NCBI GenBank assembly: GCA_963205105.1
Contig: CAUJJW010000337.1
Location: forward strand, 5,909 to 69,908
Reading direction: 5' to 3'
Length of the DNA stretch: 64,000 bases
Source: Verrucomicrobiota bacterium
Lineage (GTDB): Bacteria > Verrucomicrobiota > Verrucomicrobiia > Limisphaerales > CAIMTB01
Shown: piece by piece, positions 8,862 to 25,576 of the stretch
Layout: every line of letters starts with the position of its first letter
How positions within the stretch are numbered: the first letter of the stretch is position 1
The notes under the pieces: generated by a model
What the model was told of the DNA's origin: nothing
The model's input: only the letters and a program-made list of their open reading frames with translations
The model's database searches: none
Position numbers and translations under genes: made by a program

Positions 8862-9035
8862 AGGAAGGAGCGCGGTTAGTAACGCATCCCTTGGTCGATT
8901 GGGCAAAGGGTCTTCCGTGAGGCTTCGGCCACATCGACCGCGAATTCTGTCCGGAACCGGACGCAAGCAATTGCCTTGCCCGCAGGAGGGTATCGGGGAC
9001 ACAACACGGCGCGCCCGCAAGGACGCCCAATCACG

Positions 9036-9939: not shown

Positions 9940-11556
9940 TCAGGGGGTGGGAACGACGAAATAAAAGGCCGGGTTCACCACGATGCCGGCGTCGTTGTCG
10001 GTGTAGAGAATTTCGGGGCCGGTGGCGGTGATTTCAGCGATCCGTATCGGATTGGGATCGGAGAGCGATGACCGTCGGAGGATCTGGTATTTCTGGCCGG
10101 GCACGGTGACGAACCGAAGTTCGGGGACCGCGCGAACGTTGAGATGGAATCCGGATCTGGGATCGTTCGGGTCGGTGCTGGCCAGGAACTCCTGGAGGTT
10201 GGTGGAGCCATCACCATCGGGATCGGTTTCGGCGCCGGCGCGAGGATCGGTCCGGAAATCCTGGCCGAAGTGCTGTTGGCGCCAAGCGGTGGGGATGCCG
10301 TCGTTGTCGAAGGCGTAGATCCTGCGGTAAATCTTCGCGACGATCTCTGAAACGGGGAAACCGTTGAAGAAGGCGCGCGCCTTGAGAACGGTCGAGTTGG
10401 TCAGCTGGATGGGAGAATCGTACAGCGCGGAGGTCTGCGCGGGATCCGAGCGGTCGGCGGTCCAGTGGAGCAAGGCTCCCGAAAGGCTGGTGCTCAAGGC
10501 GACATGGACCTGGTTGGTGAAGTATTCCTCGACCGGGGAGAAGTAGATGCGGGGATCGGGCTCATAGGAGGCTGATCGGATGTCGCTCACTGGAAACCCG
10601 TTCAGAAAGGCCCGCGCACGGATGGTGAAGGACCCGGTGACGGGCAGCGAAAATGGCCCGGTGTAGGCGGTGGAAGTGATGGTGGGGTCGGTGTCATCCA
10701 GGGTGTACCGGATTTGTCCGCCGACGACGGTGGTGTCGAGGGTGATCGTGACAGGATTGGACACAGGACCCGAGGCGGGAGAGAACGTGATGACCTCGCG
10801 CTGGTTGAGGTTGAGGCCCGGGTGGGTGTGGAGGAAGTCGATCGACGCCTGGTCGAGGGCGGTGCCGTAGACCTGAACCTCATCGATCCAGCCGTTGAAC
10901 CGGCGGGCGGGAGGAGGCGGATCGACAGCGCCGACCATGAAATCGGCGGCGGACAGGATGACAGTGCCTCCTTGGGCGGTGGCGACCGGTGGGCCGCCGT
11001 CGATGTGAAAGCGCACATCACCCTCGATGCTGACGGCGAGGACGGCATGGTGCCACTGTCCGTCGTTGACGGTGACGCTGGTCCGAAAGAAGGCCCCGGC
11101 GCCGCCGTAACCCGCCATGGTTCCTCCGTCGCCGTTCAGCAACACATAGTACCCGTTCTCGAACCAAGGAGTGTGTTTGCCGAAGAGCACGGCCTCGGGC
11201 GTGGTGTCGCCCGGAGGGGTCCTGAACCAAGCCGAAATTGAATAGGCGGTGTTGGAGAGAGGAAGGATCTTGCCGAAATTCACCGAGGCGGAAGGAGAAA
11301 TGCCGGGGTGGATGGCGATGGCCGAGCCGGCGATGCCGGCATTCGTAAAGGTCGCTCCGGCAGCCAGAACGCCGGGAAACCTTCCCTTGATATCGGCCGT
11401 TGATGTACCGCTGCCCTCATCGAATCGCCAGTGGGCGATCAGGTTGGTGGATGCGGCGCCGACCGATTGGCCTGGAACAGCAGGTGGCATCAGAGCCCAC
11501 CACAACAGCAGAACGCTTAGAACGGTGCGACGGACAACACATCCATAGAGGCTCAT
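9940..11556 (-). CDS. LamG/concanavalin-like surface protein with the same C-terminal cassette as 6486..8861
   Basis: Signal peptide from ATG 11556. 'HWRFDEGSGT' and 'GQWHHAVLAV' LamG-type motifs. The C-terminal 284 aa are colinear with the FG-GAP protein tail. Confidence 0.75.
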   Translation of the reverse strand: MSLYGCVVRRTVLSVLLLWWALMPPAVPGQSVGAASTNLIAHWRFDEGSGTSTADIKGRFPGVLAAGATFTNAGIAGSAIAIHPGISPSASVNFGKILPLSNTAYSISAWFRTPPGDTTPEAVLFGKHTPWFENGYYVLLNGDGGTMAGYGGAGAFFRTSVTVNDGQWHHAVLAVSIEGDVRFHIDGGPPVATAQGGTVILSAADFMVGAVDPPPPARRFNGWIDEVQVYGTALDQASIDFLHTHPGLNLNQREVITFSPASGPVSNPVTITLDTTVVGGQIRYTLDDTDPTITSTAYTGPFSLPVTGSFTIRARAFLNGFPVSDIRSASYEPDPRIYFSPVEEYFTNQVHVALSTSLSGALLHWTADRSDPAQTSALYDSPIQLTNSTVLKARAFFNGFPVSEIVAKIYRRIYAFDNDGIPTAWRQQHFGQDFRTDPRAGAETDPDGDGSTNLQEFLASTDPNDPRSGFHLNVRAVPELRFVTVPGQKYQILRRSSLSDPNPIRIAEITATGPEILYTDNDAGIVVNPAFYFVVPTP

Positions 11557-11630
11557 GGCGGAGGGAAGGTGAACGCCGACCAATCAAGCCTGTCGGGCCA
11601 AGAACCGCAAGAGGCATGCCGGCTGTCGAA

Positions 11631-12560
11631 TCACCGCGTTGTCGGTGATGCCGAGAACGATTCCAGCGCGCGGATCGCCGCATCGACCGTCAAACCCGCC
11701 TGGGTTCGCAGGTACTCCTGAGAACCGACCACCGAGGTCAGTGTTTCGGGCACGATCAGACTCCTCATCCGAATTCCGTCCGGGGCGAGTTCACGCAGAA
11801 GCGATCCGAACCCGCCGGCGAGCACGTGCTCCTCGAAGGTGACGATCCGCGGGTACTTCCAGAGTTCTGCGAAGGCTTCGCGATCCGCGGGTTTGAGTCG
11901 GGAACAGGAGAAGACCGTGACCGGTTGTCCCTGGGCGGCGAGGCGTTCGGCGGCTTCCAAGGCGACGGAAAGTACCGAACCGGTGGCCGCGAAAGCGATG
12001 GAGGCAGGGCCGGCGGATGCGGGCTTCGACACCCGGATCGGTCCGAGAGAGCTTCCCTGGACGGTGTGAAGCGTCTTTTCGCCGGCTTTGCCCAGGCGCA
12101 AGTAGGACGGGCCTGGATTCTCAGCCAGCCACTGCACCGCTTCGGCGGCTTCGCCGGGATCAGCGGGGCTGAGGAGCGTCAGGTTCGGCAGCGGACGAAG
12201 CGCGGCGATGTCATGGATGCCGTGGTGTGAGAAACCGAGATTGCCGTAGGCCAGACCGGCACCGACGGCGACCACGGTGACGGGCAAACGGTGGTAACAA
12301 ACGTCGTTCCGGATCTGTTCCAGGCATCGGAGCGTCGGGAAATTCGCGATGGAATAGGTGAAGACGTGCCAGCCCTCCGAGGCGAGGCCGGCGGCGAGCG
12401 AGGTCATGTTCTGCTCGGCGACACCGGCGTTCAGGAAGCGGTCAGGGAACTCGGAAGCGAAGGGTTCGACGACCGAGTAGCCGAGGTCGCCGACAACCAG
12501 GAAGATCCGGGGATGCGTCCGGGCCTGGCGGATGAGCTCCTGAATGAAGGCGGTCCGCAT
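11631..12560 (-). CDS. Transketolase, C-terminal (pyrimidine-binding) subunit
   Basis: 'FLNAGVAEQNMTSLAAGLASEGW.VFTYSIANF' and length match split transketolase B subunits. Confidence 0.85.
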   Translation of the reverse strand: MRTAFIQELIRQARTHPRIFLVVGDLGYSVVEPFASEFPDRFLNAGVAEQNMTSLAAGLASEGWHVFTYSIANFPTLRCLEQIRNDVCYHRLPVTVVAVGAGLAYGNLGFSHHGIHDIAALRPLPNLTLLSPADPGEAAEAVQWLAENPGPSYLRLGKAGEKTLHTVQGSSLGPIRVSKPASAGPASIAFAATGSVLSVALEAAERLAAQGQPVTVFSCSRLKPADREAFAELWKYPRIVTFEEHVLAGGFGSLLRELAPDGIRMRSLIVPETLTSVVGSQEYLRTQAGLTVDAAIRALESFSASPTTR

Positions 12561-12563
12561 GGG

Positions 12564-13397
12564 TCAGTCGGGGCAGCCGAGTTGGCGAAGGGCATCGGCG
12601 AGCTGTGCCGGGCTGGGAGACTTGTAATGCCACGCCAGCTGATCCTGCATGAAGTCGACGCCGCGCCCCTTGGTGGTGTGGGCGATGAGGCAGGAAGGAC
12701 GGCCGGGTTCCCAGGGGACGGTTTCGAGAGCGTCCCGAATGGCGTTGTGGTCATGGCCAGCGACCTCGCGGACGGCCCAGCGGAAGGCGCGGAACTTGTC
12801 GGCGAGCGGGTGGAGTTCGGCGACCTCGGCAACGGAGCCGAGGCTTTGGATTTTGTTGTAGTCGACGAGGGCGACCAGGTTGTCGAGGCGATGTTGGGGG
12901 GCGAGCAGGATGGCTTCCCAATTGGAACCCTCGTCGAGTTCGCCGTCGCTGAGCAGGGTGAAGACGCGCCAGGGTTTGCGATCGCGTTGAGCGGCGAGGG
13001 CTTTGCCGAGTCCGAAGGGAAGGCCGTGTCCGAGAGAACCGGTACTGAACTCGACGCCGGGAACCTTGTGGCTGATGTGGGCCATGAGGCGGGAGCCGTC
13101 CTGGCCGTAAGTCGCGAGTTCGCTTTCAGGGAAAAAGCCGCGGAGGGCGAGCGTGGCGTAGACGGCGGTGCAGCTGTGTCCCTTGCTCAGGAGGAAACGA
13201 TCTCGATCGGGCCAATCGGGCTGATCCGGGCGGTGACGAAGGACGCCGGAGTACAGCACGGCGAGCAGATCGGCCATCGAGAGGGCGCCTGCGACATGGG
13301 AAGCCTTGGCGCGGGTGACCATGCGCAGGGCATGGGCGCGAATGGCGGCGGCGAGGTCGACACTGGAGCGAATGGTTGGGGCAGGTTCTGTGCGCAC
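12564..13397 (-). CDS. Transketolase, N-terminal (ThDP-binding) subunit
   Basis: 'RDRFLLSKGH', 'GSLGHGLPFGLG', 'LLSDGELDEGSNWEA', 'VDYNKIQ'. The ORF track starts at 13571, but 13402-13474 is a REP repeat, so I propose GTG 13397. The start is uncertain. Confidence 0.75.
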   Translation of the reverse strand: MRTEPAPTIRSSVDLAAAIRAHALRMVTRAKASHVAGALSMADLLAVLYSGVLRHRPDQPDWPDRDRFLLSKGHSCTAVYATLALRGFFPESELATYGQDGSRLMAHISHKVPGVEFSTGSLGHGLPFGLGKALAAQRDRKPWRVFTLLSDGELDEGSNWEAILLAPQHRLDNLVALVDYNKIQSLGSVAEVAELHPLADKFRAFRWAVREVAGHDHNAIRDALETVPWEPGRPSCLIAHTTKGRGVDFMQDQLAWHYKSPSPAQLADALRQLGCPD

Positions 13398-13401
13398 GGT
13401 T

Positions 13402-13474
13402 ACTGAACCGGGTGGCCCGCCGGGCGAGACGCCCGACTCTACGGCAGGCGGGACGCCCACCGCTACCGAGGGTA
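13402..13474. repeat. REP-like double-hairpin unit
   Basis: 'cgggcgagacgcccg.ctctacggcaggcgggacgcccaccgctac' ending in 'ggttcatgg'. Same family as 30716-30780 and 45316-45382. Confidence 0.8.
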
Positions 13475-13503
13475 GGTTCATGGGCAGAGGCTCGGACATC
13501 CGG

Positions 13504-15117
13504 TCAGCGGGCGAGGATGTCGCGGATTTGGGCGCAGACGTAGGCGACCTCTTCGCGGGCGAGGCAGACACCGCTGGGCAGGTTGATGGCGCGCAGTCCG
13601 ATGCGCAGGGCGTTGGGCTGGGGCGTCTGGGGTGTGGGCCAGATTGGGTATTGGCTGATGGCAGGGAACACCGCGCGGGTGTCGACCTTGCGAGCCTTGA
13701 GTTCCTTCATGAGATCGTCGCGGGAAATGGGGGACGATTCATGCACCAGAATGCTGGTCATCCAATAGATGCTCCGCGCCCAGGAAGCTTCCCGGTTGAG
13801 GGAGAGATGTGGCACACCGGCGAGACCTTCTTCGTACCAGCGGAAGACGCGGCGCTTGGCTTCGACCATGGCGTCGTTGCGCTCGAGTTGGCCGAGGCCG
13901 ATGGCGGCGAGAGTGTTGGCCAGTTTGTATTTCCAGCCACGGTGGGCGATCCAGAAGGTGCCGGGCACGCGGCCTTGATCCCAAATCGTATAGACCTTCT
14001 TGTAGAGTTCGTCGTCGTTGGTCAGGAGCATCCCGCCCTCCCCGGTGACGGCGAGTTTGGCCCCCTGGAAGCTGAACGCGGCGAAATGGCCAAAGGAGCC
14101 GGTTCGCCGTCCGAGAACTTCCGCGCCGATCGACGGGGCGGCATCCTCGACAACGGAAAGGCCGTGTTCGTTGGCGATCTTGAGGATTTCGTCCATGCGG
14201 CAGGGATGTCCGTACAAGTGGACGGGCATGACTGCCTTGGTGCGGGGCGTGATCTTGGATCGGAACGATTCGGGATCGAGGGTCCAGGTCTCGGGGTCGA
14301 CATCGGCGAACACCGGTGTGGCGCCGACATAAAGAACTGCGTTGCCGGTGGCGACCCAGGTGATGTCCGGAACGATGACTTCGTCGCCGGGTCCGATGCC
14401 GAGGGCGGCGAGGGCGAGGTGAAGGGCTCCGGTGCAACTGGAGGTGGCGAGGGCGTACTTGGCGCCGATGTACTGGGCGAACGACTGCTCGAAGGCCTTG
14501 AGGTACTTGGCCCATTGATCGTTCCAGCCGTACTTGGCGGCATCGAAGGCGTAGGAAGCCTCGCGCGCGGAGATGGACGGGCCGGCGGTGAGGATCATCT
14601 TTTCGCCTCCGCGCCAATTCGCCCGGCGGCTCAGGACGATTGGGTCGTCGCCAGGCTGGCTGGTTGCCGCAAGGGAATCGGAGCGGATGGGCAGATCACG
14701 GATCGCGTCGCCGAAGAGCGTGCGAAGTGAGGAGAGCGACGCCGTGCAGTGTTCCGGCCAGAGGGTTTCCTCGGACCACCGGACGATTTCGCGCACGGCC
14801 TCGGCGAGTTCACCTCCGCACGGATCCCCATCAACCTGGGCGAGGGTGAGGTTGGGAGCGGAAAGCTGGAGGACCACCCGGCCGCGGTTTTGGAGGGTTT
14901 TTGAGACGACGAGGAACGCGCACTGGTCGGGGTTGGCGAGAATGGCGTCGTCGGCGGGGGAAGTGCGGTTGGCCTGGGTGAGGGGGACGGCGAGTCCTCC
15001 GGAGGTGGGGAGGTGTAGGCCGCGGCTGAAGGTGCCTTCGAGGTGGTTGGCGGCCTTGAGGAAGGCGAACTCCCGGCGCACGCTGGTGGCGAAGGAGGAC
15101 GGGGGAACGGTGTTCAT
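13504..15117 (-). CDS. DegT/DnrJ/EryC1/StrS-family sugar aminotransferase with a ~170-aa N-terminal extension of unknown function
   Basis: The C-terminal ~360 aa carry 'ATSSCTGALHLALAALGIGPGDEVIVPDITW' and 'FSFQGAKL'. The start at 15117 leaves a 16-nt gap to the upstream gene. Confidence 0.8.
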   Translation of the reverse strand: MNTVPPSSFATSVRREFAFLKAANHLEGTFSRGLHLPTSGGLAVPLTQANRTSPADDAILANPDQCAFLVVSKTLQNRGRVVLQLSAPNLTLAQVDGDPCGGELAEAVREIVRWSEETLWPEHCTASLSSLRTLFGDAIRDLPIRSDSLAATSQPGDDPIVLSRRANWRGGEKMILTAGPSISAREASYAFDAAKYGWNDQWAKYLKAFEQSFAQYIGAKYALATSSCTGALHLALAALGIGPGDEVIVPDITWVATGNAVLYVGATPVFADVDPETWTLDPESFRSKITPRTKAVMPVHLYGHPCRMDEILKIANEHGLSVVEDAAPSIGAEVLGRRTGSFGHFAAFSFQGAKLAVTGEGGMLLTNDDELYKKVYTIWDQGRVPGTFWIAHRGWKYKLANTLAAIGLGQLERNDAMVEAKRRVFRWYEEGLAGVPHLSLNREASWARSIYWMTSILVHESSPISRDDLMKELKARKVDTRAVFPAISQYPIWPTPQTPQPNALRIGLRAINLPSGVCLAREEVAYVCAQIRDILAR

Positions 15118-15133
15118 CGGGGGAAGAAAAACC

Positions 15134-16237
15134 TCAGGTCAATTCGCGGATACGCCGACAGACGAGCGCAACGTCCTCTTCGGTGAGGCAGAATGCGCCC
15201 GGCAGGAGCACGCCATGGGTTTCGATGAGGGCGCAGACCGGGGTGTCGCCCTTGTGTTGAAACATGGGCATCGGGCTCTGGCGGGGCTGAGCGGGGCGGG
15301 CGTCGATGTTGTCGAGCTTGAGCTTGGCGAAGAGCTCGGCGCGGGTCACCCGGGCGCCAGGCTTCAGCAGCATGGGCGGGTAGCAGTAAGTGCTCTTGGT
15401 TCCCGGGGCCTCGCGAATGAGCTTCACGTTGGGGGCATCGCCGAGGCGCGCTTCATACCAGGCCCAGATCTGGCGCTTCTTGGCCAGCAGTTCCTCGATG
15501 CGATCCATCTGCGCCGCGGCGAGGGCTGCCGGCAGGTTGGGCATGCCGTAGTTGAAGCCGATGAAATCGGACCAGTAGGTCATGACCGAGTCGGTGCGGC
15601 CATAGGAGGCGAGCTGTCGGGCCTTGAGAATGGCGTCGTCGCGGTTGGTCACGAATGCGCCGCCCTGGCCGGCGATGGCGATCTTGGCGCCCTGAAAGCT
15701 GAACGAGGCGGTATCGCCGAGGGTGCCGATTTTGCGACCACGGTATTCGGCTCCGAGGGCTGGGGCGCCGTCCTCCATGACCACGAGCTGGTGTTTTTGG
15801 GCGATGTCGAGCAGATCGTCCATGGCGCAGGGGTGCCCGTTCCAGTGGACGGGCATCAGGGCCTTGGATCGGGGTGAGAGACAGCGGCGGACGGAATCGG
15901 GGGCGAGACACCAGGTTTCGGGATCGACGTCGGCGAAGATGGGGGTGGCGCCGGTGTAGGCGACGGCGAGGGCGGTGGCGACGCAACTGGCGTCGGGCAC
16001 GATCACTTCATCGCCGGGGCCGATGCCGAGGCTGGCGAGCCCGAGGTGCATGGCGGCGGTGCCGGAGTTCACGGCCAGGCAGTGGCGGACGCCGAGATAC
16101 TCGCAGATCTTCTTTTCGAGTTTCGAGGCGTGGAGGCGGTAGTTCTCGTAGAAGCCGTTTTGGGCGGCCTCGGCCACGGCGGCGACTTCGGCCTCGGTGA
16201 TCCAAGGGCCGGCGTAGTGAATTTTGCGCTGGGACAT
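15134..16237 (-). CDS. DegT/DnrJ/EryC1/StrS-family sugar aminotransferase
   Basis: 'NSGTAAMHLGLASLGIGPGDEVIVPD', 'FSFQGAKI'. 367 aa is a canonical length. Confidence 0.85.
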   Translation of the reverse strand: MSQRKIHYAGPWITEAEVAAVAEAAQNGFYENYRLHASKLEKKICEYLGVRHCLAVNSGTAAMHLGLASLGIGPGDEVIVPDASCVATALAVAYTGATPIFADVDPETWCLAPDSVRRCLSPRSKALMPVHWNGHPCAMDDLLDIAQKHQLVVMEDGAPALGAEYRGRKIGTLGDTASFSFQGAKIAIAGQGGAFVTNRDDAILKARQLASYGRTDSVMTYWSDFIGFNYGMPNLPAALAAAQMDRIEELLAKKRQIWAWYEARLGDAPNVKLIREAPGTKSTYCYPPMLLKPGARVTRAELFAKLKLDNIDARPAQPRQSPMPMFQHKGDTPVCALIETHGVLLPGAFCLTEEDVALVCRRIRELT

Positions 16238-16243
16238 CGCGGG

Positions 16244-16912
16244 TTAGAAATGACGTTCGCCTGGTTGTCGGCTGCGCACGACGCGGGCAGGCACGCCGTA
16301 GGCAAGACTAAGCGGGGGCACGTCCGCAAGCACGACGGAGCCAGCGCCGATGACGGTGTGGGCTCCGACGTGGACCTTGTGGGCGAGGGTGGCGCCGAGG
16401 CAGACGCAGGAAAACTCGCCGATTTCGACGTTGCCTCCGGTGACGACGCCGGGCAGGAGGCAGGACCAGGGGTGCAGGATCCCGTCGTGATCGAGGGAGG
16501 CCCTGGTATTAACGATACAACCGGTACCGAGGCGGCAATTTGTGTTCACCACGGCCCCGGCGAGGGCGAGGGTACCGGCGCCGACTTCCACATCTCGGGC
16601 GATGACGGAAGCGGGGTGGAGGATGCTGAACAACTCCAGGCTTGGACGGAGCTGTTGGATCATGTCGTGGACCTTGGCGCGGGTGGTGTTGTCGCTGATG
16701 GCGAGGAAGTACCCATCCAGGCGATGCTCGCGGGCCAGGGCATCGAGCTCTGCGGGTTTGCCGAGCACCTGGAGGCCGGCGAGTTCAGTGCCGGCAGCGA
16801 CGAAGGTATCGGTCCAGCCGACGAGGTCGAAGCGGTCCTGGCAACGGGCGGCGTCGAGGGCCACGCGGCCATGGCCGGAGGCTCCGACAAGGACGATTCG
16901 GGGGCGGGTCAT
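16244..16912 (-). CDS. Hexapeptide-repeat sugar N-acetyltransferase (NeuD/PglD family)
   Basis: N-terminal Rossmann-like 'IVLVGASGHGRV' followed by left-handed beta-helix repeats. Confidence 0.8.
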   Translation of the reverse strand: MTRPRIVLVGASGHGRVALDAARCQDRFDLVGWTDTFVAAGTELAGLQVLGKPAELDALAREHRLDGYFLAISDNTTRAKVHDMIQQLRPSLELFSILHPASVIARDVEVGAGTLALAGAVVNTNCRLGTGCIVNTRASLDHDGILHPWSCLLPGVVTGGNVEIGEFSCVCLGATLAHKVHVGAHTVIGAGSVVLADVPPLSLAYGVPARVVRSRQPGERHF

Positions 16913-16921
16913 GGGAGGGGT
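16865..16921. repeat. 57-bp direct repeat, copy 1 (includes the acetyltransferase start codon)
   Basis: Identical base for base to 17563-17619: gcggccatggccggaggctccgacaaggacgattcgggggcgggtcatgggaggggt. Confidence 0.95.
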
Positions 16922-16976
16922 GTGATCGCTGGGTCAGTTCATTGACAACGCCTTGGGAAGGGCGGCAAGTTCCCGC

Positions 16977-17210
16977 ATGGCGTCGCTGCTTAACCGAATC
17001 ACCATCGATCCGGATGTGTGCCACGGCAAACCGGTGATTCGCGGGCTTAGATATCCGGTCGAGAGTGTTCTTGAGTACCTCGCGGCCGGCGACTCGATCG
17101 AGGACGTGCTGGTGGATTTCCCTGACCTGCAACGGGAAGACCTTCTTGCTTGCTTGGAATTTGCGACTCGCTCGTTGCAGGTTCGAAGCCAGCACCTCGT
17201 GTTGACGTGA
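16977..17210 (+). CDS. DUF433-family putative antitoxin
   Basis: 'ITIDPDVCHGKPVIRGLRYPVESVLEYLAAGDSIEDVL.DFPDL..EDL' is the DUF433 signature. Its stop overlaps the partner start (GTGA). Confidence 0.75.
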   Translation: MASLLNRITIDPDVCHGKPVIRGLRYPVESVLEYLAAGDSIEDVLVDFPDLQREDLLACLEFATRSLQVRSQHLVLT

Positions 17211-17560
17211 AGTTCGTGGTCGATGCGCATCTGCCCTTTCGCCTTTGCGAGCTGCTCGTTGCCGCAGGTCATGATTGCGTGCACACGACCCAACTTCCTG
17301 ACGGCAATCGAAGTGCTGACGTAACCCTGATTCAGCTCGCAGTTGCGGAAGGTCGGGTACTCGTCTCGAAGGATGCCGACTTCTATTATGCCTACCTGAC
17401 GGGCCGAGAGTCGTTTCGCCTGCTCCTGGTTCGAACCGGCAACCTTCGCTCCGCGGCCTTGATCGATCTGTTCGGGAGACATCTGGAGGAAATCCTTCAG
17501 GCGCTGAGCAGCCACTCGTTGGTCGAACTGCATTCCATAGGGCCTCGGGCATGCCGCTGA
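17207..17560 (+). CDS. DUF5615-family (PIN-like) putative toxin
   Basis: 'KFVVDAHLP..L...L...GHD..H' N-terminus. GTG 17207 overlaps the DUF433 stop codon by 4 nt. Confidence 0.65.
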   Translation: MKFVVDAHLPFRLCELLVAAGHDCVHTTQLPDGNRSADVTLIQLAVAEGRVLVSKDADFYYAYLTGRESFRLLLVRTGNLRSAALIDLFGRHLEEILQALSSHSLVELHSIGPRACR

Positions 17561-17562
17561 AT

Positions 17563-17619
17563 GCGGCCATGGCCGGAGGCTCCGACAAGGACGATTCGGG
17601 GGCGGGTCATGGGAGGGGT
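17563..17619. repeat. 57-bp direct repeat, copy 2 (abuts the rfbH stop codon)
   Basis: Identical to 16865-16921. It carries a now-orphan copy of the acetyltransferase start and first 15 codons. Confidence 0.95.
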
Positions 17620-19307
17620 TAGCGCCGACAAAACCGGGTGATGGTGTCGGTGGTGTGCTCCAGCATGGCGTCGGTGAGGCCCGGATAGACGCCGATGAAG
17701 ACGGATTCGTTCATGATGCGATCCGCGCCTGCCAGATCGCCAACGACCCGGAACGCGGAGGGGTTGTCGCGTCGGAGCTGAACAAACGCAGGCTGCCGAA
17801 GCAGATTCCCTCCGAAGAGCATGCGGTTGCCGATTTTGGCGGCGTCGAGGGCCCGGGCGAAGTCGCGGCGTGAGAACGGGGCGTCGGGTCGGACGCGCAT
17901 CATGAACCCGAACCAGCTGGGGGTGGTGCGGTGGCCGGATGTGTCCCAGGAAAATCCCTGAGCGGGGCTCCAGCCGGTGGCATGGGTGGGCAATTGGAAC
18001 TCGAGCACACCCTCGAGCGGTGCAAGCTCGGTGCGCAGGCGGTTCCAGGTCTGGCTGCGGGCCTGGACGAAGGCCGGGAGTTTACGCAGTTGGGCCCGGC
18101 CGATCGCCGCCTGGGGGTCCAGGGGCTTCAAGTTATAGCCGAGGTGGCTGTAGATGTATTTGTGGTCGTAGCCCTCGGGGAGTTCGCCGAGCTGCCAGCC
18201 AAAGCGCTTGTTGCAGGTGTTGTCCTTGCCGCTGGGGCACCAGCAATCACGGCCCCAATCGCGGAAACTCTCGACGAGGGGTTTCAGGCGGGATTCGCGG
18301 ACGATGCTGACGGCGCCGCCTTCCCCGAGCGTGAGGTGATGAGGAGGGTAAAACGACTGAGTGGAAAGGTCGCCGAACGTCCCGGTCAGGCGGTCGTCGT
18401 AGCGACTGCCGAGGGCATCGCAATTGTCTTCGATGAGCCAGAGCTGATGGCGGCGGCAAAACTCGGTGACGGTCGCGAGTTCGAAGGGATTGCCGAGCGT
18501 GTGGGCCATGAAGACGGCCTTGGTCTTTCCCGGAACGAAGGCTTCTTCCAGTTGGTCGTGACGGGCGTTGAGCGTGACGGGGTCGTTGTCGATGAACACC
18601 GGCACGAGGCCATTTTGGAGGATGGGTGCGACGGTGGTGGGGAAACCGGCGGCGACGGTGATGATCTCATCACCGGGACGAAGGCGCCGGTCGCCCAGCT
18701 TGTGGCTGGTGAGGGCGCTGACGGCGAGCAGGTTGGCGGAGGAACCGCTGTTGACCAGGAGTGTGCGGCGCACGCCGAGGTAGGCGGCCAGTTCGGTCTC
18801 GAAGGCGTCGCCCTCGGGTCCGAGGGTGAGCCAGAAATCGAGGGTTGCGGAGACCGCGGCTTCGACTTCATGGGTGTCGAAAACGCGACCGGCGTAGGGG
18901 ACGGTGGTCTGGCCCGGCGAGAAGGGGTCGCGTCCGTCGAGTTGATCGCCGGGTCGCTGGTTGGCGTGTTGAAGGCGCGAGAATGAGCGAGTGTGCTGAA
19001 GAGCGATGGCCCGGTGGATTTCGGCCAGTTTGGAGGGGCGAAGGCGGATGGGCTGAGCCGAGAAACCGCTGGTGTGGAGGGTGGTCAGTCGGTCGCTGCG
19101 CACCACCAGCGGCGAAGGCAGCGTGCCCTCGGCGACGTCGGCGGGTGTCAACACCAGTAGGCCGGGTGGCTCCGTCGGTTCGGTCAGAGGTGCGAGTAGA
19201 AGGAAGCCTTGAGCGTCGGGCTCACCCAGCGCGATGGCCTGACTGGCAGCGGAGAGCTCTGGAAGGTTGGGGTTTGGTAGGGCAACGAGCCGGCCGGCGA
19301 GATTCAT
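17619..19307 (-). CDS. rfbH: RfbH/DdhC-like PLP/PMP-dependent CDP-4-keto-6-deoxyglucose 3-dehydrase with an N-terminal extension
   Basis: 'LVNSGSSANLLAVSALTSHKLGDRRLRPGDEIITVAAGFPTTV' and the C-terminal region match RfbH-type proteins. Start set to ATG 19307 (38-nt gap to rfbG); ATG 19388 is the alternative. Confidence 0.75.
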   Translation of the reverse strand: MNLAGRLVALPNPNLPELSAASQAIALGEPDAQGFLLLAPLTEPTEPPGLLVLTPADVAEGTLPSPLVVRSDRLTTLHTSGFSAQPIRLRPSKLAEIHRAIALQHTRSFSRLQHANQRPGDQLDGRDPFSPGQTTVPYAGRVFDTHEVEAAVSATLDFWLTLGPEGDAFETELAAYLGVRRTLLVNSGSSANLLAVSALTSHKLGDRRLRPGDEIITVAAGFPTTVAPILQNGLVPVFIDNDPVTLNARHDQLEEAFVPGKTKAVFMAHTLGNPFELATVTEFCRRHQLWLIEDNCDALGSRYDDRLTGTFGDLSTQSFYPPHHLTLGEGGAVSIVRESRLKPLVESFRDWGRDCWCPSGKDNTCNKRFGWQLGELPEGYDHKYIYSHLGYNLKPLDPQAAIGRAQLRKLPAFVQARSQTWNRLRTELAPLEGVLEFQLPTHATGWSPAQGFSWDTSGHRTTPSWFGFMMRVRPDAPFSRRDFARALDAAKIGNRMLFGGNLLRQPAFVQLRRDNPSAFRVVGDLAGADRIMNESVFIGVYPGLTDAMLEHTTDTITRFCRR

Positions 19308-19345
19308 ACGTGGGCGGTGCGCGAGGCGATCCGGGCGGGAGTTGG

Positions 19346-20470
19346 TTATTTGGCCCAAGGCAGACCCGCTTCCTGGGCGCGGCCGCAAAAGGCCTGGATT
19401 TGGTCCTGAGTTAGCTGGATGGCCTTGGAGGGCTCTTGGGCGTGCGCGACATCGAAGTACCAGCGCAGGGTTTCACGGACGGAATCGGTGAAGGTCCAGA
19501 CCGGGCGCCATCCCAGCAGGGCGTGGGCTTTGTCGATCGACAGGTGAAGCAGCGTGGCTTCGTGAGGGGCTTGGGGGTCGCTTCCGTCGATCCATTCGCC
19601 GGGGACGAATTTCCTGGCTTCCTCGACCAGGTCGTGGACGGAGCGGTTGGAATCGGAGGAGGGGCCGAAGTTGAACGCCGATTCGAGGGGGGAACCGTTG
19701 GCGGGTTGGCGGGCCAGTTGGGCGGCAAGCCAGAGGTAGCCTGAGAGGGGTTCCAACACGTGCTGCCAGGGGCGGGTGGCACGGGGGTTGCGTATGCGAA
19801 GCGGCCGGTTGGCGATCCAGGCCCGGGCGCAATCCGGGACGATGCGGTCCTCGGCCCAGTCACCGCCGCCGATGACATTCCCGGCGCGAGCGCTGGCGAT
19901 GCGGACGGGGTGATTGCGGAAGAAGGATTGGCGCCAGGTCGCGACGGCGATTTCGCTGGCGGCCTTGCTGGCGCTGTAGGGGTCGGCGCCGCCGAGTGGA
20001 TCATTTTCGCGATACCCGAAGAGCCATTCCCGGTTCTCGTAGCACTTGTCGGTGGCCACCATGACGGCGACGCAGGGCTTCTGGAGGGTGCGAAGCGCTT
20101 CCAGGACGTGGATCGAGCCGAGGACGTTGGTCTGCCAGGTGGCGAGGGGTTCGCGGTAGGAGCGTCGGACGAGGGGTTGAGCGGCGAGATGGAAGACGAA
20201 GTCCGGTTGGGATTCGGCGATGACCCGTCGGATGCCGTCGGCGCTGCGGATGTCGCCGAAGATGCTGTCGAGGCGATTGGCGAGCTGGAGTTGGGTGAAG
20301 AGGGAGGGATCGGTTTCGGCTGGAAGTCCGAGGCCGGTGACGTTGGCTCCCAGGCCGAGCAGCCATTCACAGAGCCAGGAGCCTTTGAACCCGCTATGCC
20401 CGGTCACGAGGACCCGTTTGCCGGCGTAGGTTTCGGCAAGGGGAGCTGGAGCGGAGAGAGTAGCGGTCAC
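19346..20470 (-). CDS. rfbG: CDP-glucose 4,6-dehydratase
   Basis: 'GKRVLVTGHSGFKGSWLCEWLLGLGANVTGL', an SDR YxxxK core, ~370 aa. Confidence 0.9.
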   Translation of the reverse strand: MTATLSAPAPLAETYAGKRVLVTGHSGFKGSWLCEWLLGLGANVTGLGLPAETDPSLFTQLQLANRLDSIFGDIRSADGIRRVIAESQPDFVFHLAAQPLVRRSYREPLATWQTNVLGSIHVLEALRTLQKPCVAVMVATDKCYENREWLFGYRENDPLGGADPYSASKAASEIAVATWRQSFFRNHPVRIASARAGNVIGGGDWAEDRIVPDCARAWIANRPLRIRNPRATRPWQHVLEPLSGYLWLAAQLARQPANGSPLESAFNFGPSSDSNRSVHDLVEEARKFVPGEWIDGSDPQAPHEATLLHLSIDKAHALLGWRPVWTFTDSVRETLRWYFDVAHAQEPSKAIQLTQDQIQAFCGRAQEAGLPWAK

Positions 20471-20483
20471 GGGAACGGGACGG

Positions 20484-21266
20484 TCACCAGACTTTCCAGG
20501 GGGCCTTGCCTTCGGACCAGAGCCCGTTGAGGTAGGTCATCTCCTGGTAGGTGTCCATGGGCTGCCACCAGCCCTCATGCTTGTAGGAGTGGAGTTGACC
20601 GTCGTCGAGGAGGTTTCCGATGGGGCCTCGTTCGAAGGCGACGGTGGGGTCGTCGGGGAGGTACTCGAAGATCTTGTGTCCGCAGACCATGAAACCGCCA
20701 TTGACCCAGACGGCTTCCACCTGGGGTTTTTCGTGGAACCGGTGGATTTGGCCGTCTTCATGGAGCGCCATCATGCCGAAGCGACCGGCGGGGTGGACGG
20801 CGCTGATGGTGACGATGCGTCCGGCTTTTTCGTGGGCGGCGATGCTGGCGTTGATGTCGATATTGGAGAGTCCATCGCCGTAGGTCATGAGGAACGGTTC
20901 ACCGGGCTGAAGGTAGCGGCGGATCTGGCGGAGGCGATGGGCGGTCTGAGATTCCAGGCCGGTGTCGGCGAGGGTCACGGACCAGTCCTCCTCTTCGTGG
21001 TGATCGTGGAACTTGGCTCCGGGTTTGCGGCCGAGCGAGATGGTGACGTCGCAGCGGTTCCAGAGGTAGTTCCGGAAGTAATCCTTGATCATGTCGCCCT
21101 TGTACCCGAGGCAGAGGATGAAATCCCGATGCCCGTGGTGGGCATAGTATTTCATAATGTGCCAGAGGATCGGCTGGCCGCCGATGGGGACCATGGGTTT
21201 GGGGCGGAACTCGGTCTCCTCGCGGAGCCGGGTGCCTTTGCCACCACAGAGAATCACGACCTTCAT
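20484..21266 (-). CDS. rfbF: Glucose-1-phosphate cytidylyltransferase
   Basis: 'MKVVILCGGKGTRLREETEFRPKPMVPIGGQPILWHIMKYY' from ATG 21266. Confidence 0.9.
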   Translation of the reverse strand: MKVVILCGGKGTRLREETEFRPKPMVPIGGQPILWHIMKYYAHHGHRDFILCLGYKGDMIKDYFRNYLWNRCDVTISLGRKPGAKFHDHHEEEDWSVTLADTGLESQTAHRLRQIRRYLQPGEPFLMTYGDGLSNIDINASIAAHEKAGRIVTISAVHPAGRFGMMALHEDGQIHRFHEKPQVEAVWVNGGFMVCGHKIFEYLPDDPTVAFERGPIGNLLDDGQLHSYKHEGWWQPMDTYQEMTYLNGLWSEGKAPWKVW

Positions 21267-21331: not shown

Positions 21332-22252
21332 TCAGGGTTGGCGACGGCGGCCGTGGAAAAAGAGGCGCTTGAGGAACCACCACCAGGCTTGGGGTTGCCT
21401 CAGGGCGTGGAGATTGTCCCGAATGTAGCGGATCGGGTGCCGGGTGATCTTGCGCACGAGCTCGCGTCGAATGTGTTCGATGGCCAGCTCCGGACGGAGT
21501 TCCGGCACATCGAACTGGCCGCGAAGCCAGCCCAGGTATTCGAGCCAGCTCCGTTCCAGGTCGGTGGGCCAGACGGCGTCGACTGCCGGGGCGCGGCTGT
21601 CGCGGACCTGAATCGTGGGAAACGCCGCGACCTGGATGGCGCCACCTTGCTGCTGAAGGCCACGAGCCATGCCGTACATGTGCAGGAAATCGGTCGCCTC
21701 CTTCTCCTTGGCGAAGATCCGATCAAAGGCATTGGCCCGGTAGATGTTGGAGCTGGTCAGGGTGTGCTCGACGAGGGCGTGCGTGTGGACCCGTGCACAT
21801 TCGCGGATGTAATCACGATAGGTCGCAAACCGGGCGGGGCGCTGGATACGAGGGTTGTAGCGCGTGTCGAAGTGGATCAGCAGGCTGAGTGCCGGGTCGT
21901 CGCGCAGTGTTTTCAAGGAATGCGCAAGGCCGCCGGGAAGCAGGAGGTCGTCGTCCCCGATGATCCACAGATACTGGCCAGCGGCGTGATGGACGAGCTT
22001 ATGGTAGTTGCCACGGGCCCCGATGTTCTCCTCGTTGCGCCAGTATCGCAGGATCGGAAGCCGAGCCGCGACGGACTGGGCCAATGTGCCGGTGTCATCG
22101 GTGGACGCGTTGTCCGAGACGAGGATTTCGAGGCCGCATTCGGCCACGATGGGTTCGCGGGCCTGGACTTCCAGGGCCTCGAGCAAATCGCGCAGGTATC
22201 CGGCGCGATTGCGCGTGGGGATGCCGATGGTCAGGAGCACACGTTCCATCAA
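21332..22252 (-). CDS. Family-2 glycosyltransferase
   Basis: 'LTIGIPTRNRAGYL', 'VSDNASTDDT' and 'IIGDDD' GT-A motifs. Confidence 0.8.
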   Translation of the reverse strand: MMERVLLTIGIPTRNRAGYLRDLLEALEVQAREPIVAECGLEILVSDNASTDDTGTLAQSVAARLPILRYWRNEENIGARGNYHKLVHHAAGQYLWIIGDDDLLLPGGLAHSLKTLRDDPALSLLIHFDTRYNPRIQRPARFATYRDYIRECARVHTHALVEHTLTSSNIYRANAFDRIFAKEKEATDFLHMYGMARGLQQQGGAIQVAAFPTIQVRDSRAPAVDAVWPTDLERSWLEYLGWLRGQFDVPELRPELAIEHIRRELVRKITRHPIRYIRDNLHALRQPQAWWWFLKRLFFHGRRRQP

Positions 22253-23113: not shown

Positions 23114-24316
23114 TCAAACCTCGCCGATGTGGTGGATCGCTTCCTGGGCGACGGTGGCGCCGATGGCGAGGGAGGCGGTGGCAGCGGGGGACGGGGCGTT
23201 GCAGATGTGGATCACGTTGCCGTCGATGCGGATGTCGAAGTCGTCGAGCAAACGGCCTTCCCGGTCACAGGCCTGGGCTCGAATCCCCGCTCCGCCGGGG
23301 TCGAGGTCGGCGGCGGTGATGTCGGGGATGAGGCGTTGAAGGGCCCGGACAAAGGCGGCCTTGCTCCAGGATCGGCGGAATTCGCCGAGTCCGGTGCGCC
23401 AGTATTTGCGGGCGACGATGCGAAATCCGGGCCAGGCGAGGGTTTCGAGAGTGTCGCGGAGGTGGAAGTCCGTTTTCCGATAAGCTTCCCGACCAAAGGC
23501 GAAGACGGCGTTGGGGCCGCATTCGATACCGCCACGGATCATCCGGGTGAAGTGGACGCCCAGGAAGGGGAAGGCGGGGTCTGGAACGGGGTAAATGAGG
23601 TTGCGGACGAGATGATGGGCGGCGGGTTTGAGCACGTAATACTCGCCGCGGAAGGGTGTGATGCGCAGCGGCAGGTCGGGATGGGTGAGGCGGGCCACCC
23701 GATCGGAGTGCAGGCCGGCACAGGTGACGAGCACCCGGCCGGTCCAGGTGCGATGGGCACTGGCCACCTCGATGGCGGTGTCCTTGCGGCGGATGGCTTC
23801 GATGCGTTGTCCAAAGATGATCTCTCCGCCGAGTTCGCGGATTTTATCGGCGTACTTTTCCGCCACGGCGGTGTAGTCGACGATGCCGGTTTGGGGGACC
23901 CAGAGGCCCTGGATGCCGGTGCAATGGGGTTCGATCTCGCGGATTTCGGCGGAGGAGAGGGTACGGAGGCCGGCGAGACCGTTGGCTTCGCCGCGGCGCT
24001 GGAGTTCGGCGAGGCGGGGCAGTTCGGATTCGGAAGTGGCGACCACGATTTTGCCGCAGAGATCATGGGGGATGCCTTCCTTGCGGCAGAAGTCGATGAG
24101 TTGCTGGTAGCCGGTGCGGCAGTTGGCGGCTTTGAGTGAGCCGGGCTTGTAGTAGAGGCCGGAGTGGATGACGCCGCTGTTGTTGCCGGTTTGGTGCCGG
24201 GCGGGGGCGGGTTCCTTTTCGATCAGAACGAGCCGTGTGGCCGGGCGGCATTGGAGGAGGCGAAAGGCGGTGGCGAGACCGACGATGCCGCCGCCGACGA
24301 TGAGGACATCAGTCAT
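23114..24316 (-). CDS. lhgO: FAD-dependent L-2-hydroxyglutarate oxidase/dehydrogenase
   Basis: 'DVLIVGGGIVGLATA', 'NSGVIHSGLYYKPGSLKA', ~400 aa. Confidence 0.8.
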   Translation of the reverse strand: MTDVLIVGGGIVGLATAFRLLQCRPATRLVLIEKEPAPARHQTGNNSGVIHSGLYYKPGSLKAANCRTGYQQLIDFCRKEGIPHDLCGKIVVATSESELPRLAELQRRGEANGLAGLRTLSSAEIREIEPHCTGIQGLWVPQTGIVDYTAVAEKYADKIRELGGEIIFGQRIEAIRRKDTAIEVASAHRTWTGRVLVTCAGLHSDRVARLTHPDLPLRITPFRGEYYVLKPAAHHLVRNLIYPVPDPAFPFLGVHFTRMIRGGIECGPNAVFAFGREAYRKTDFHLRDTLETLAWPGFRIVARKYWRTGLGEFRRSWSKAAFVRALQRLIPDITAADLDPGGAGIRAQACDREGRLLDDFDIRIDGNVIHICNAPSPAATASLAIGATVAQEAIHHIGEV

Positions 24317-24622: not shown

Positions 24623-25576
24623 TCACGGGGCGCGGCGGCCATAGAAGGTTTTGAGGGCGAAGTTGGCGAGCCAGCGCGGGAAGAAGCGGCTGCCGGCGAT
24701 TTCCGCGGTGCGCCGGCCGGCGTGGCGGAGGAAGGCGGTGGAAAGGAACGGCCAATGGGCGCGGTGACGCAGGACGACGCGGACCATGTCGGGTCCGAAC
24801 CCGCCGAGCAGTCCGCTGGCGCGCAGGCGGGGCAGGACATCGGCGTAGCGCTCGCTTTCGAGCAGGCGGAGCAGTTGATCCATGACTTGGCGGCGGGCGG
24901 AGTTCTGGGCCGAGTTATAGAACGAGGTGGAGAACAGGTTGTAGATCGAAAGGACTTTGGGGGTGTGGCAGGCGCCGTGTCGGAAGCTCACCACCCAGCC
25001 GCCGAAAGCGTCGGTGAACCAGCGCAACTCCGGGATCCAGCCGCCGGCATCCTGTAGCGCGGTTTTCTTGTAGAGCATGTGCTGGCCGGACATGGCGAAC
25101 CGGCCCGTCTGCGCCAACCGCACCAGGTCGTCGGGGTTCAGGAAGCACGAACGGTCGGGCATGGTGACGCCGTGGACCCAGTTGCGGCCCTTGGCTTCGT
25201 CACGCCATTCGGTCATGCCGCTGGCGGCGCCGGCTTCGGGATGCTCGGCCAGGAGCGGGAGCAGATGCTCGAAGAGGCAGGGGAGGACTTCGTCGTCGGC
25301 GGCGGGGAAGCAGACGTAATCGCCCTGGGCCATGTCGAGGCCGCGGTTGAGGGTGAAACAGACGCCGCGGTTCTGTTCATTGCGCACGACTTTGAGCAGC
25401 GGGTGCTGACGGGCGTAGGCCTGCAAGACCTCCAGGCTGTCGTCCTTGGAGGCGTCGTCGATGACGATGACCTCGTGGGGCGGGACGGTCTGGTGGAGGA
25501 GGGCGTCGAGGCAGCGCGGGAGGAACTTTGCGTGGTTGTAATTGGGGACGACGACGGAGGCGCGGGGGAGGCTCAT
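24623..25576 (-). CDS. Family-2 glycosyltransferase
   Basis: 'SVVVPNYNHAKFLPRCLDAL', 'IDDASKDDS', 'PAADDE'. Start at ATG 25576 with an ATGA overlap to the upstream gene. Confidence 0.8.
   Translation of the reverse strand: MSLPRASVVVPNYNHAKFLPRCLDALLHQTVPPHEVIVIDDASKDDSLEVLQAYARQHPLLKVVRNEQNRGVCFTLNRGLDMAQGDYVCFPAADDEVLPCLFEHLLPLLAEHPEAGAASGMTEWRDEAKGRNWVHGVTMPDRSCFLNPDDLVRLAQTGRFAMSGQHMLYKKTALQDAGGWIPELRWFTDAFGGWVVSFRHGACHTPKVLSIYNLFSTSFYNSAQNSARRQVMDQLLRLLESERYADVLPRLRASGLLGGFGPDMVRVVLRHRAHWPFLSTAFLRHAGRRTAEIAGSRFFPRWLANFALKTFYGRRAP

Follow-up and report, generated by a model that had tools for sequence, protein, structure and literature searches.

A 64,000-nucleotide (nt) stretch of a Verrucomicrobiota bacterium genome (contig CAUJJW010000337.1; the whole stretch is referred to below as the window) carries an operon in which RfbF, RfbG and RfbH, the entry enzymes of cytidine diphosphate (CDP)-3,6-dideoxyhexose biosynthesis, are encoded together with a sugar N-acetyltransferase, two DegT-family aminotransferases (DegT1 and DegT2) and the two halves of a split transketolase (TK), TK-N and TK-C. 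The best explanation of this gene set is that its product would be a CDP-activated, heavily tailored 3,6-dideoxyhexose for a surface glycan. Comparative genomics shows, at the level of sequence and gene context, that TK-N/TK-C form a distinct TK-derived subfamily of thiamine diphosphate (ThDP) enzymes dedicated to pathways of nucleoside diphosphate (NDP)-4-keto-6-deoxyhexoses. By analogy with YerE and YerF of yersiniose A biosynthesis, it is plausible, if somewhat short of probable, that the TK transfers a glycolaldehyde-type unit onto the keto group at C-4 of CDP-4-keto-3,6-dideoxyglucose and that the resulting side-chain ketone is then aminated and acetylated.

Transketolase subunits and their substrate pocket

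The domains of TK-N and TK-C are Transketolase_N, Transket_pyr and Transketolase_C, and not those of the decarboxylase/acetolactate-synthase fold of YerE (TPP_enzyme_N/M/C). TK-N is approximately 50% identical to the N-component of the split-chain TK of Carboxydothermus hydrogenoformans (6YAK, 234 bits), while TK-C is far more diverged from the corresponding subunit (6YAJ, 151 bits). The two systems share the two-gene architecture, the ThDP/Mg motif, the activating glutamate and the catalytic histidines, and in alignment TK-C retains Arg2, Ser29, Glu49 (the ThDP-activating residue) and His112. The difference between them lies in the substrate pocket, in which the window protein has Gly, Leu and Lys for His, Asp and Arg, and in genomic context, which is NDP-sugar biosynthesis rather than central metabolism. 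In canonical TKs these three residues hold the sugar phosphate (His469, Asp477 and Arg528 in yeast, or His416, Asp424 and Arg474 in human, in the numbering of the TK structural literature); the His and Arg bind the phosphate and the Asp binds the acceptor hydroxyl. The canonical His is replaced by Gly100 in the window TK-C, and Gly occupies this position in all 120 closest homologues and all 83 orthologues. The canonical Arg is replaced by Lys158, and Lys is found in 120 of 120 closest homologues and in 73 of 83 orthologues. At the Asp position, where the window has Leu108, the closest homologues have Leu, Met or Ala (120 of 120) and none of the 83 orthologues has Asp (59 Leu, 7 Met, 6 Gln, 6 His and 5 Ala), although this position falls within one of the two peptide patterns by which loci were fetched, so that invariance is partly built in there; the other positions and the word-based list of homologues are unaffected.

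The catalytic apparatus is conserved throughout the family. More specifically, the four catalytic histidines and the ThDP/Mg motif (SDGE...N) are kept in 79 TK-N orthologues, and both Glu49 and His112 are invariant in the 83 TK-C orthologues. TK-N also exhibits family-specific changes of its own, with SDG in place of GDG in 79 of 79 orthologues and GHG in place of GQG in 78 of 79. A pocket that has lost the phosphate-binding His and Arg as well as the Asp, and has kept the donor histidines, would fit a small hydroxylated donor, for instance hydroxypyruvate, and as acceptor a bulky nucleotide sugar instead of a sugar phosphate.

Both subunits score below the NCBIfam transketolase cut-off of 488 (TK-N 253 bits, TK-C 134 bits), which is weak evidence because half-length proteins cannot reach a full-length cut-off. 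TK-C matches the 1-deoxy-D-xylulose-5-phosphate synthase (DXS) model TIGR00204 at 1.3e-30 and the TK model NF004559 at 7e-39, and DXS structures are its second-best PDB matches; TK-N matches the DXS model only at 7e-05. NCBIfam has no model dedicated to either TK half, nor to the short-chain dehydrogenase/reductases (SDRs), C-methyltransferases (CMTs) and TylF-like methyltransferase found with their relatives. The closest named homologues of TK-C are in metagenome-assembled genomes (MAGs) of Limisphaerales and Verrucomicrobiales. Matches to TK-C on Azospirillum and Rhizobium plasmids (36-38% identity) were not used; the Azospirillum match lies in a radical S-adenosylmethionine (SAM)/B12 context.

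Phylogenetic distribution and gene context of the family

The taxonomic distribution of the subfamily is wide. A genome scan found a relative in at least 590 species genomes, from Verrucomicrobiota, Planctomycetota (Kuenenia, Novipirellula), Acidobacteriota (Edaphobacter), Bacteroidota, Cyanobacteria, Chloroflexota, Bacillota (Paenibacillus), Alpha- and Betaproteobacteria (Sphingobium, Limnohabitans, Roseateles) and others. Eighty retrieved loci (given L numbers here) were annotated by tblastn with the window proteins and three proteins of locus L005, and 54 of them had adequate flanks. Among these 54, TK-N lies beside TK-C in 52, RfbF or RfbG (at least 40% identity) is encoded within 10 kb in 42, and RfbH is present in 30. 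Locus L062, which has no RfbF/RfbG match, carries a PglF-type 4,6-dehydratase for uridine diphosphate-N-acetylhexosamine (UDP-HexNAc), and L085 has a PglF-type dehydratase upstream in addition to RfbF/RfbG. Both L062 and L077 encode a DegT protein and a second aminotransferase, and L077 an initiating sugar transferase as well.

The gene arrangements recur as a limited set of architectures. Type (a), RfbF-G-H-acetyltransferase-DegT1-DegT2-TKN-TKC, is that of the window, L004, L014, L019, L031 and L034. Type (b) reads RfbF-G-H-(flavin reductase)-GNAT::DegT2-(TylF-type methyltransferase)-TKN-TKC, and type (c) RfbF-G-H-SDR-TKN-TKC. Type (d), RfbF-G-CMT-SDR-CMT-TKN-TKC, is found in L005, L006, L009 and L081; the locus of Kuenenia stuttgartiensis (L038, L023), RfbF-G-SDR-CMT-TKN-TKC-CMT, is also of this type and has no RfbH. 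Type (e), from Sphingomonadales, reads TKN-TKC-RfbF-G-SDR-GtrA, and type (f) comprises the PglF-type clusters. Thus, the constant partners of the TK across these recurrent architectures are a sugar nucleotidyltransferase and a 4,6-dehydratase, the makers of an NDP-4-keto-6-deoxyhexose.

In these loci the gene that precedes TK-N alternates. The 1.5 kb upstream hold an SDR in 21 loci and a DegT2-type aminotransferase of at least 50% identity in 9, and in no locus are both present; all nine of the DegT2-type loci possess RfbH. On a 509-kb plasmid of Paenibacillus cellulosilyticus (NZ_CP054609.1; L088, 7097-9004) an extended SDR and TK-N are fused into a single protein of 635 amino acids (aa), preceded by rfbF, rfbG and a CMT and followed by TK-C and a TylF-type methyltransferase. 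The label given to this fusion protein by the PGAP annotation is only 'SDR family NAD(P)-dependent oxidoreductase'. Both the alternation and the SDR::TK-N fusion are expected if the TK makes a new ketone that is then tailored. Plasmid pHY1 of Methylovirgula sp. HY1 carries rfbF-rfbG-SDR-rfbH-TKN-TKC adjoining genes for a family-2 glycosyltransferase (GT2) and GtrA and rfbBCDA; this cassette and that of Paenibacillus are both located on accessory plasmids, inside glycan clusters.

The original prediction that the TK pair serves the sugar pathway specifically, and is not a pentose-phosphate enzyme, is borne out by the synteny across phyla, the family-specific pocket change and the SDR::TK-N fusion. 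A housekeeping TK was rejected on the pocket residues, the synteny and the plasmid location. Two other roles were considered for the TK and rejected. It is not a substitute for the reductase E3, the usual partner of RfbH-type dehydratases, because clusters without RfbH (types d and e) also carry it, and it does not provide the acyl donor with which the amine is modified, since many TK clusters encode no aminotransferase. In a Gemmataceae MAG (L042, 3951-10894) a YerE-like enzyme of the acetolactate-synthase type is encoded together with TK-N/TK-C, RfbF/G/H, an SDR, an FkbM methyltransferase and an acyltransferase; the product of this cluster may be a sugar with two branches, or there may be two separate sugars.

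Organization and integrity of the operon

The window has a G+C content of approximately 65%, and its minus strand carries nearly all genes. The eight genes form a tight set on that strand, running from 21266 down to 11631 (Table 1), and every assignment in the original prediction (rfbF, rfbG, rfbH, a PglD-like acetyltransferase, two DegT proteins and a split transketolase) is upheld by Pfam and NCBIfam profiles. With the exception of one insertion, the genes are 3-38 nt apart; from the acetyltransferase to TK-C the gaps are 3-16 nt, including 4 nt between DegT2 and TK-N and 3 nt between TK-N and TK-C. This close spacing suggests that the genes are co-transcribed.

Table 1. Features of the operon, the inserted cassette and the adjoining glycosyltransferase gene (window coordinates)
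Feature	Position	Strand	Details
Family-2 glycosyltransferase	21332-22252	-	PF00535 1.4e-17; immediately upstream of rfbF
rfbF, glucose-1-phosphate cytidylyltransferase	20484-21266	-	260 aa from ATG at 21266; TIGR02623 323.6 bits (cut-off 300.25); PF00483
rfbG, CDP-glucose 4,6-dehydratase	19346-20470	-	374 aa; TIGR02622 470.4 bits (cut-off 278.45)
rfbH, E1-type pyridoxamine 5'-phosphate (PMP)/[2Fe-2S] CDP-4-keto-6-deoxyglucose 3-dehydratase	17619-19307	-	562 aa; NF011936 643 bits (cut-off 423)
57-bp direct repeat, upstream copy	17563-17619		100% identity, spacing 698
DUF5615/PIN-like protein	17150-17560	+	PF18480 3.8e-18, with PIN_10 and Mut7-C
DUF433 protein	16953-17210	+	PF04255 2.3e-25
57-bp direct repeat, downstream copy	16865-16921		holds functional acetyltransferase start
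NeuD/PglB/VioB-family sugar N-acetyltransferase, PerB-like	16244-16912	-	222 aa; TIGR03570 172.6 bits (cut-off 160.8); PF17836 PglD_N and Hexapep
DegT1, pyridoxal 5'-phosphate (PLP) sugar aminotransferase, PerA-like	15134-16237	-	367 aa; PF01041 1.9e-96
DegT2, PLP sugar aminotransferase	13504-15117	-	PF01041 4.8e-111 at residues 182-532; catalytic part 13504-14598
TK-N, ThDP-binding (PP-domain) subunit, transketolase-like	12564-13499	-	311 aa; PF00456 2.8e-43
TK-C, Pyr-domain and C-terminal-domain subunit, transketolase-like	11631-12560	-	309 aa; PF02779 and PF02780

The insertion, which the earlier annotation had missed, separates rfbH from the acetyltransferase gene by 698 bp and contains two plus-strand genes. 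The DUF433/DUF5615 pair is predicted to be a toxin-antitoxin cassette that interrupts the operon. It lies at the 5' end of the acetyltransferase gene between the two copies of a perfect 57-bp direct repeat, each of which contains the ribosome-binding region and the initial 46 nt of that gene, and the insertion has left the gene with a regenerated, intact start. In L004, the closest relative (80-92% identical), the gene order is the same and the syntenic site is empty, with the stop of RfbH overlapping the start of the acetyltransferase. Logan short-read contigs terminate within the 57-bp repeat on both sides, which explains the assembly breaks there and argues that the insertion is real.

The operon itself is also independently attested. 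Its proteins are exactly identical on independent Logan short-read contigs from three samples, an independent Logan contig (L090) encodes an identical 374-aa RfbG, and the same architecture occurs in four genomes more distant than L004. An assembly chimera or chance adjacency at the junction of rfbFGH with the remainder was rejected on the contiguous order in L004 and on the short-read contigs, which break exactly at the 57-bp repeat.

Entry enzymes and electron supply to RfbH

RfbH aligns with the Yersinia E1 enzyme (PDB 3BCX, 462 bits) with full conservation of His220 and of Cys193, Cys251, Cys253 and Cys261. In E1 enzymes His220 is the PMP histidine that replaces the usual PLP lysine, and the four cysteines make up the C-X57-C-X1-C-X7-C [2Fe-2S] motif. 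Their conservation indicates that RfbH is a genuine, electron-dependent dehydratase of the E1 type. Together, the families to which these enzymes belong and their active-site residues show that RfbF, RfbG and RfbH are the predicted route from glucose-1-phosphate to CDP-4-keto-3,6-dideoxy-D-glucose.

In the characterized E1/E3 pairs (DdhC/DdhD, AscC/AscD), with which RfbH shares the E1 histidine and the unusual cysteine motif, electrons are supplied by E3. No protein with Fer2, FAD_binding_6 or NAD_binding_1 domains was found by Pfam in the selected open reading frames (ORFs) of the 64-kb window, a 2692-aa ORF (45406-53484) and many short ORFs lying outside the scan, and tblastn of the whole window with a relative's reductase gave no match. 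Apart from RfbG the operon has no gene of the Epimerase/SDR family, and no terminal C-4 ketoreductase or epimerase (abequose or paratose synthase, tyvelose epimerase). The original prediction had noted that the usual E3 and a terminal epimerase or reductase are missing from the operon, and within the ORFs scanned Pfam and tblastn agree. The lack of E3 applies to the window and to its nearest relative but does not characterize the pathway: directly 3' of RfbH, other related loci, seven in number (L014, L017, L019, L029, L035, L036, L078), have a 247-aa Fre/FNR-like flavin reductase without a ferredoxin domain, in place of the 330-aa [2Fe-2S] flavoprotein E3. Because sister clusters possess this reductase, the absence of E3 is a lineage-specific and less interesting feature. 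Other E1-type dehydratases without a dedicated reductase, such as SpnQ, work with general cellular reductases, and RfbH of the window presumably takes its electrons from a reductase encoded elsewhere.

RfbH also has an N-terminal extension of approximately 100 aa (18951-19307) that is common only to L004, contains no cysteines, and gave no match in a Pfam scan. It is 59% identical between the two, against 90% for the catalytic part. A fused electron-transfer domain was ruled out by the lack of cysteines and of a Pfam match and by the lineage-specific, fast-evolving nature of the extension. By eye it bears a faint likeness to MazF/PemK-type toxins, a candidate resemblance only, and it has no significant similarity to the N-terminal extension of DegT2.

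Aminotransferases and acetyltransferase

DegT1 and DegT2 are paralogues with 42% identity, and the best solved relative of each is the GDP-perosamine synthase PerA of Caulobacter (3BN1; 252 and 295 bits, respectively). The Schiff-base lysine of DegT1 (SFQGAK) aligns with that of 3BN1 (SFFGNK), and DegT2 has the same SFQGAK. Neither reaches any NCBIfam equivalog cut-off, the best being LegC (292 and 256 bits, against 420). The acetyltransferase is closest among solved structures to the perosamine N-acetyltransferase PerB (4EA7), with the catalytic DHD motif aligned. The window nevertheless differs from the PerA/PerB system in that the nucleotide is CDP rather than GDP, the substrate is 3-deoxygenated and there are two paralogous aminotransferases. 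One of the two, DegT2, was ancestrally a GNAT fusion protein, and its gene is in close linkage with those of the TK.

DegT1 orthologues are confined, among the annotated loci, to L004, L014, L019, L031 and L034; DegT1 and the acetyltransferase thus constitute an add-on module of type (a) clusters only. The DegT2 proteins of type (b) relatives begin with an intact Acetyltransf_3 GNAT domain (PF13302), so that aminotransferase and acetyltransferase are one fused protein (for example L029, 6617-7330). The corresponding N-terminal 173 aa of the window DegT2 (14599-15117) exhibit no GNAT similarity by Pfam or tblastn, and their G+C content at third codon positions (GC3, 0.76-0.90) is coding-like. 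This region appears to be a degenerate GNAT remnant kept in frame, whose function was probably taken over by the separate PerB-like acetyltransferase. DegT1 may draw part of the 4-keto intermediate toward a 4-acetamido-3,4,6-trideoxyhexose.

Proposed pathway and alternative explanations

In the proposed pathway, RfbG would convert CDP-glucose to CDP-4-keto-6-deoxyglucose, from which RfbH and an unlinked reductase would yield CDP-4-keto-3,6-dideoxyglucose. TK-N/TK-C would then form a ThDP-bound two-carbon carbanion, most likely dihydroxyethyl-ThDP from hydroxypyruvate or a ketose, and this carbanion would attack the C-4 carbonyl of the CDP-keto-sugar to give a 4-C-glycolyl tertiary alcohol, as in the logic of YerE. 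Addition is placed at C-4 because the carbanion of a ThDP enzyme must attack a carbonyl group, and these intermediates have none but that of C-4. By transamination DegT2 would turn the ketone of the side chain into a 1'-amine (the SDR of sister clusters would reduce it instead, like YerF), and the PerB-like enzyme would N-acetylate the amine to a 1'-acetamido group, a task assigned to it because the GNAT domain of DegT2 has decayed. The predicted product is CDP-3,6-dideoxy-4-C-(1-acetamido-2-hydroxyethyl)hexose. The first two conversions rest on family membership and active-site residues; from genomic context we infer the TK, DegT2 and N-acetylation steps.

The precedent is yersiniose A biosynthesis in Yersinia pseudotuberculosis (DdhA-D, YerE, YerF), in which the entry enzymes DdhA/B/C correspond to RfbF/G/H, the intermediate is the same CDP-4-keto-3,6-dideoxyglucose, and a ThDP enzyme is co-encoded. 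The likeness extends to the sister clusters, where a reductase adjoins or is fused to the ThDP enzyme. The window differs in that its ThDP enzyme has the two-subunit TK fold, and YerE the acetolactate-synthase/decarboxylase fold; in that its donor is probably a hydroxylated two-carbon unit, and that of YerE pyruvate-derived acetaldehyde; and in having an aminotransferase and acetyltransferase in the place of YerF and no DdhD/E3. The YerE-analogous branching that had been suggested for the TK remains the most chemically sensible reading, and it has a published parallel (PMC12247030), but the branching itself is deduced by analogy. Because the aminotransferases and the acetyltransferase are most like PerA and PerB, an unbranched 4-acetamido-3,4,6-trideoxyhexose is a serious alternative. 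Only tentatively can the chemistry be extended to the family of at least 590 species genomes: its members would possibly use NDP-4-keto-6-deoxyhexoses as ketone acceptors and be the first TK-type sugar-branching enzymes, acting in ordinary surface-glycan biosynthesis and not in antibiotic pathways, with an amino-branched product of an undescribed class in the window and dihydroxyethyl-branched or C-methylated products in the sister clusters.

Several observations weigh against branching by the TK. No transketolase has been demonstrated to accept a ketone (PMC12247030), and the chemistry is predicted from sequence and context. Part of the locus set was fetched by the altered-pocket motif, so that the invariance of this one position is inflated. 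The nearest relatives of DegT1, DegT2 and the acetyltransferase are PerA/PerB, which act at ring C-4; if the DegT enzymes use up the 4-keto group, the TK is left without an acceptor. In every architecture, including the CMT-type and SDR-only clusters, a conventional pathway is already complete with the genes other than the TK. In Kuenenia, whose TK locus is a candidate source, the O-glycan of the S-layer protein contains an unidentified sugar of 174 Da (PMC5088730). This mass is that of a di-C-methyl-6-deoxyhexose, for which no two-carbon addition is needed; it is also that of a hydroxyethyl-branched dideoxyhexose, yet the Kuenenia locus is without RfbH. Finally, L042 holds both a YerE-like enzyme and the TK pair, so that the two are not simply interchangeable.

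The most serious competitor, though on balance unlikely, is an unbranched CDP-4-acetamido-3,4,6-trideoxyhexose made by RfbF/G/H with the PerA-like and PerB-like enzymes, the TK pair having some other pathway-linked role, such as the synthesis of a non-sugar substituent or a ThDP-dependent rearrangement or epimerization of the keto-sugar. The perosamine-enzyme affinities of both DegT proteins (252 and 295 bits) and of the acetyltransferase agree with it, as do the restriction of DegT2-type enzymes to RfbH-containing loci, the conventional pathway formed by the non-TK genes in every cluster type, and the 174-Da Kuenenia sugar, which is explicable without two-carbon addition. It gives no account, however, of a ThDP enzyme conserved beside 4,6-dehydratases in many phyla, with a remodelled acceptor pocket and an SDR fusion. 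The ThDP carbanion requires a carbonyl electrophile, for which C-4 alone is available, and aminotransferase-free clusters also carry the TK, so that its role is independent of the amine. A branched product from pyruvate or another 2-oxo acid by DXS/YerE chemistry, giving a 4-C-acetyl branch and hence a yersiniose-type or 1-aminoethyl-branched sugar, is improbable. The precedent of YerE, which uses pyruvate (PMC12247030), and the nearly equal scores of TK-C on DXS and TK models, with DXS structures second-best, speak for it; on the other side, all of the TK histidines that hold the C1-hydroxyl of the donor are invariant in the family, and TK-N is much nearer to true TKs (234 bits to 6YAK) than to DXS (7e-05).

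Even less probable is a decaying, non-functional cluster in this organism. The operon is split by the toxin-antitoxin insertion with its 57-bp duplication, the GNAT remnant of DegT2 has no detectable similarity to intact domains, and no E3 or other reductase partner for RfbH was found in the window ORFs scanned. Against this, all eight ORFs are intact with coding-type GC3 (0.7-0.9), the insertion regenerated the acetyltransferase start, and catalytic residues are intact in RfbH, both DegT proteins, the acetyltransferase and the TK; the SpnQ case shows, moreover, that E1-type dehydratases can do without a dedicated reductase. It is barely credible that the pair is an ordinary split pentose-phosphate transketolase adjoining the sugar operon by chance. 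Pfam and NCBIfam recognize only generic transketolase domains, and among solved structures the closest is that of an active split-chain TK, but three substrate-binding residues are replaced family-wide, synteny with RfbF/RfbG extends across phyla, the window genes are separated by gaps of 3 nt within the pair and 4 nt to DegT2, and the cassette is plasmid-borne in two cultured bacteria.

Flanking genes

The GT2 encoded immediately upstream of rfbF likely uses the CDP-sugar. A GT2 occurs at the same position in L005 and L090, GT2 and GtrA flank the Methylovirgula and Paenibacillus cassettes, and GtrA follows the cassette in a Sphingobium MAG. These neighbours suggest that the sugar decorates a surface glycan by a lipid-linked route. 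Farther upstream, at 23114-24316, lies a DAO-family FAD oxidoreductase that is also present in L005 and L090, regardless of the tailoring genes. A second sugar-nucleotide-like set occupies 24623-27454 and comprises a GT2, a second nucleotidyltransferase (25573-26376), a HAD phosphatase (26328-27035) and a NUDIX hydrolase (26903-27454). With the boundaries given, the ORFs overlap one another, and their start sites are approximate.

Directly downstream of TK-C are two large secreted proteins (6486-9020 and 9940-11583), one with LamG_3 and one with FG-GAP/UnbV_ASPIC domains. A repeated CHB_HEX_C_1/Fn3_assoc region is common to both, and their C-terminal tails are similar; in L004, L005 and L006 the TK genes are followed by the same secreted proteins. 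A 342-aa ORF (5222-6250) contains a partial IS200-like Y1 transposase domain, and a similar gene is found near the cluster in L001 and L005. The 2692-aa ORF mentioned above lies on the minus strand and exhibits strong coding GC3.

Relation to other split transketolases and significance

Split-gene TKs have been proposed, and never demonstrated, to transfer a hydroxyacetyl unit to keto-sugars in miharamycin and amipurimycin biosynthesis, and a 2025 review listed only 13 further split-TK candidates, all from Streptomyces and none characterized (PMC12247030). Like the window pair, the miharamycin and amipurimycin enzymes, likened here by description only, are split TKs in a sugar-tailoring cluster with a proposed ketone acceptor. 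They belong, however, to actinomycete secondary metabolism and to nucleoside sugars, while the window family is found in surface-glycan clusters of many phyla. A full-text literature search found no publication on this TK family in CDP-sugar or surface-glycan clusters. 

If the proposed chemistry is true, the pair would provide the first natural transketolases with ketones as acceptors and tertiary alcohols as products, a reaction that has been sought for biocatalysis and never demonstrated according to the same review (PMC12247030). Even if branching should prove wrong, a conserved ThDP enzyme of NDP-sugar pathways with a remodelled pocket has no known function. Cultured carriers exist in Methylovirgula (strain HY1, MHY1_RS17090-17115 on pHY1), Paenibacillus (P. 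cellulosilyticus KACC 14175, HUB94_RS00335-00355), Edaphobacter (strain HDX4), Limnohabitans (strain G3-2) and Novipirellula, and the hypothesis is therefore directly testable. Its confirmation would provide a functional annotation for hundreds of genes that are now labelled just 'transketolase', and would show that the envelopes of poorly studied phyla, namely Verrucomicrobiota, Planctomycetota and Acidobacteriota, contain a large, unrecognized class of C8 branched and amino-branched sugars.

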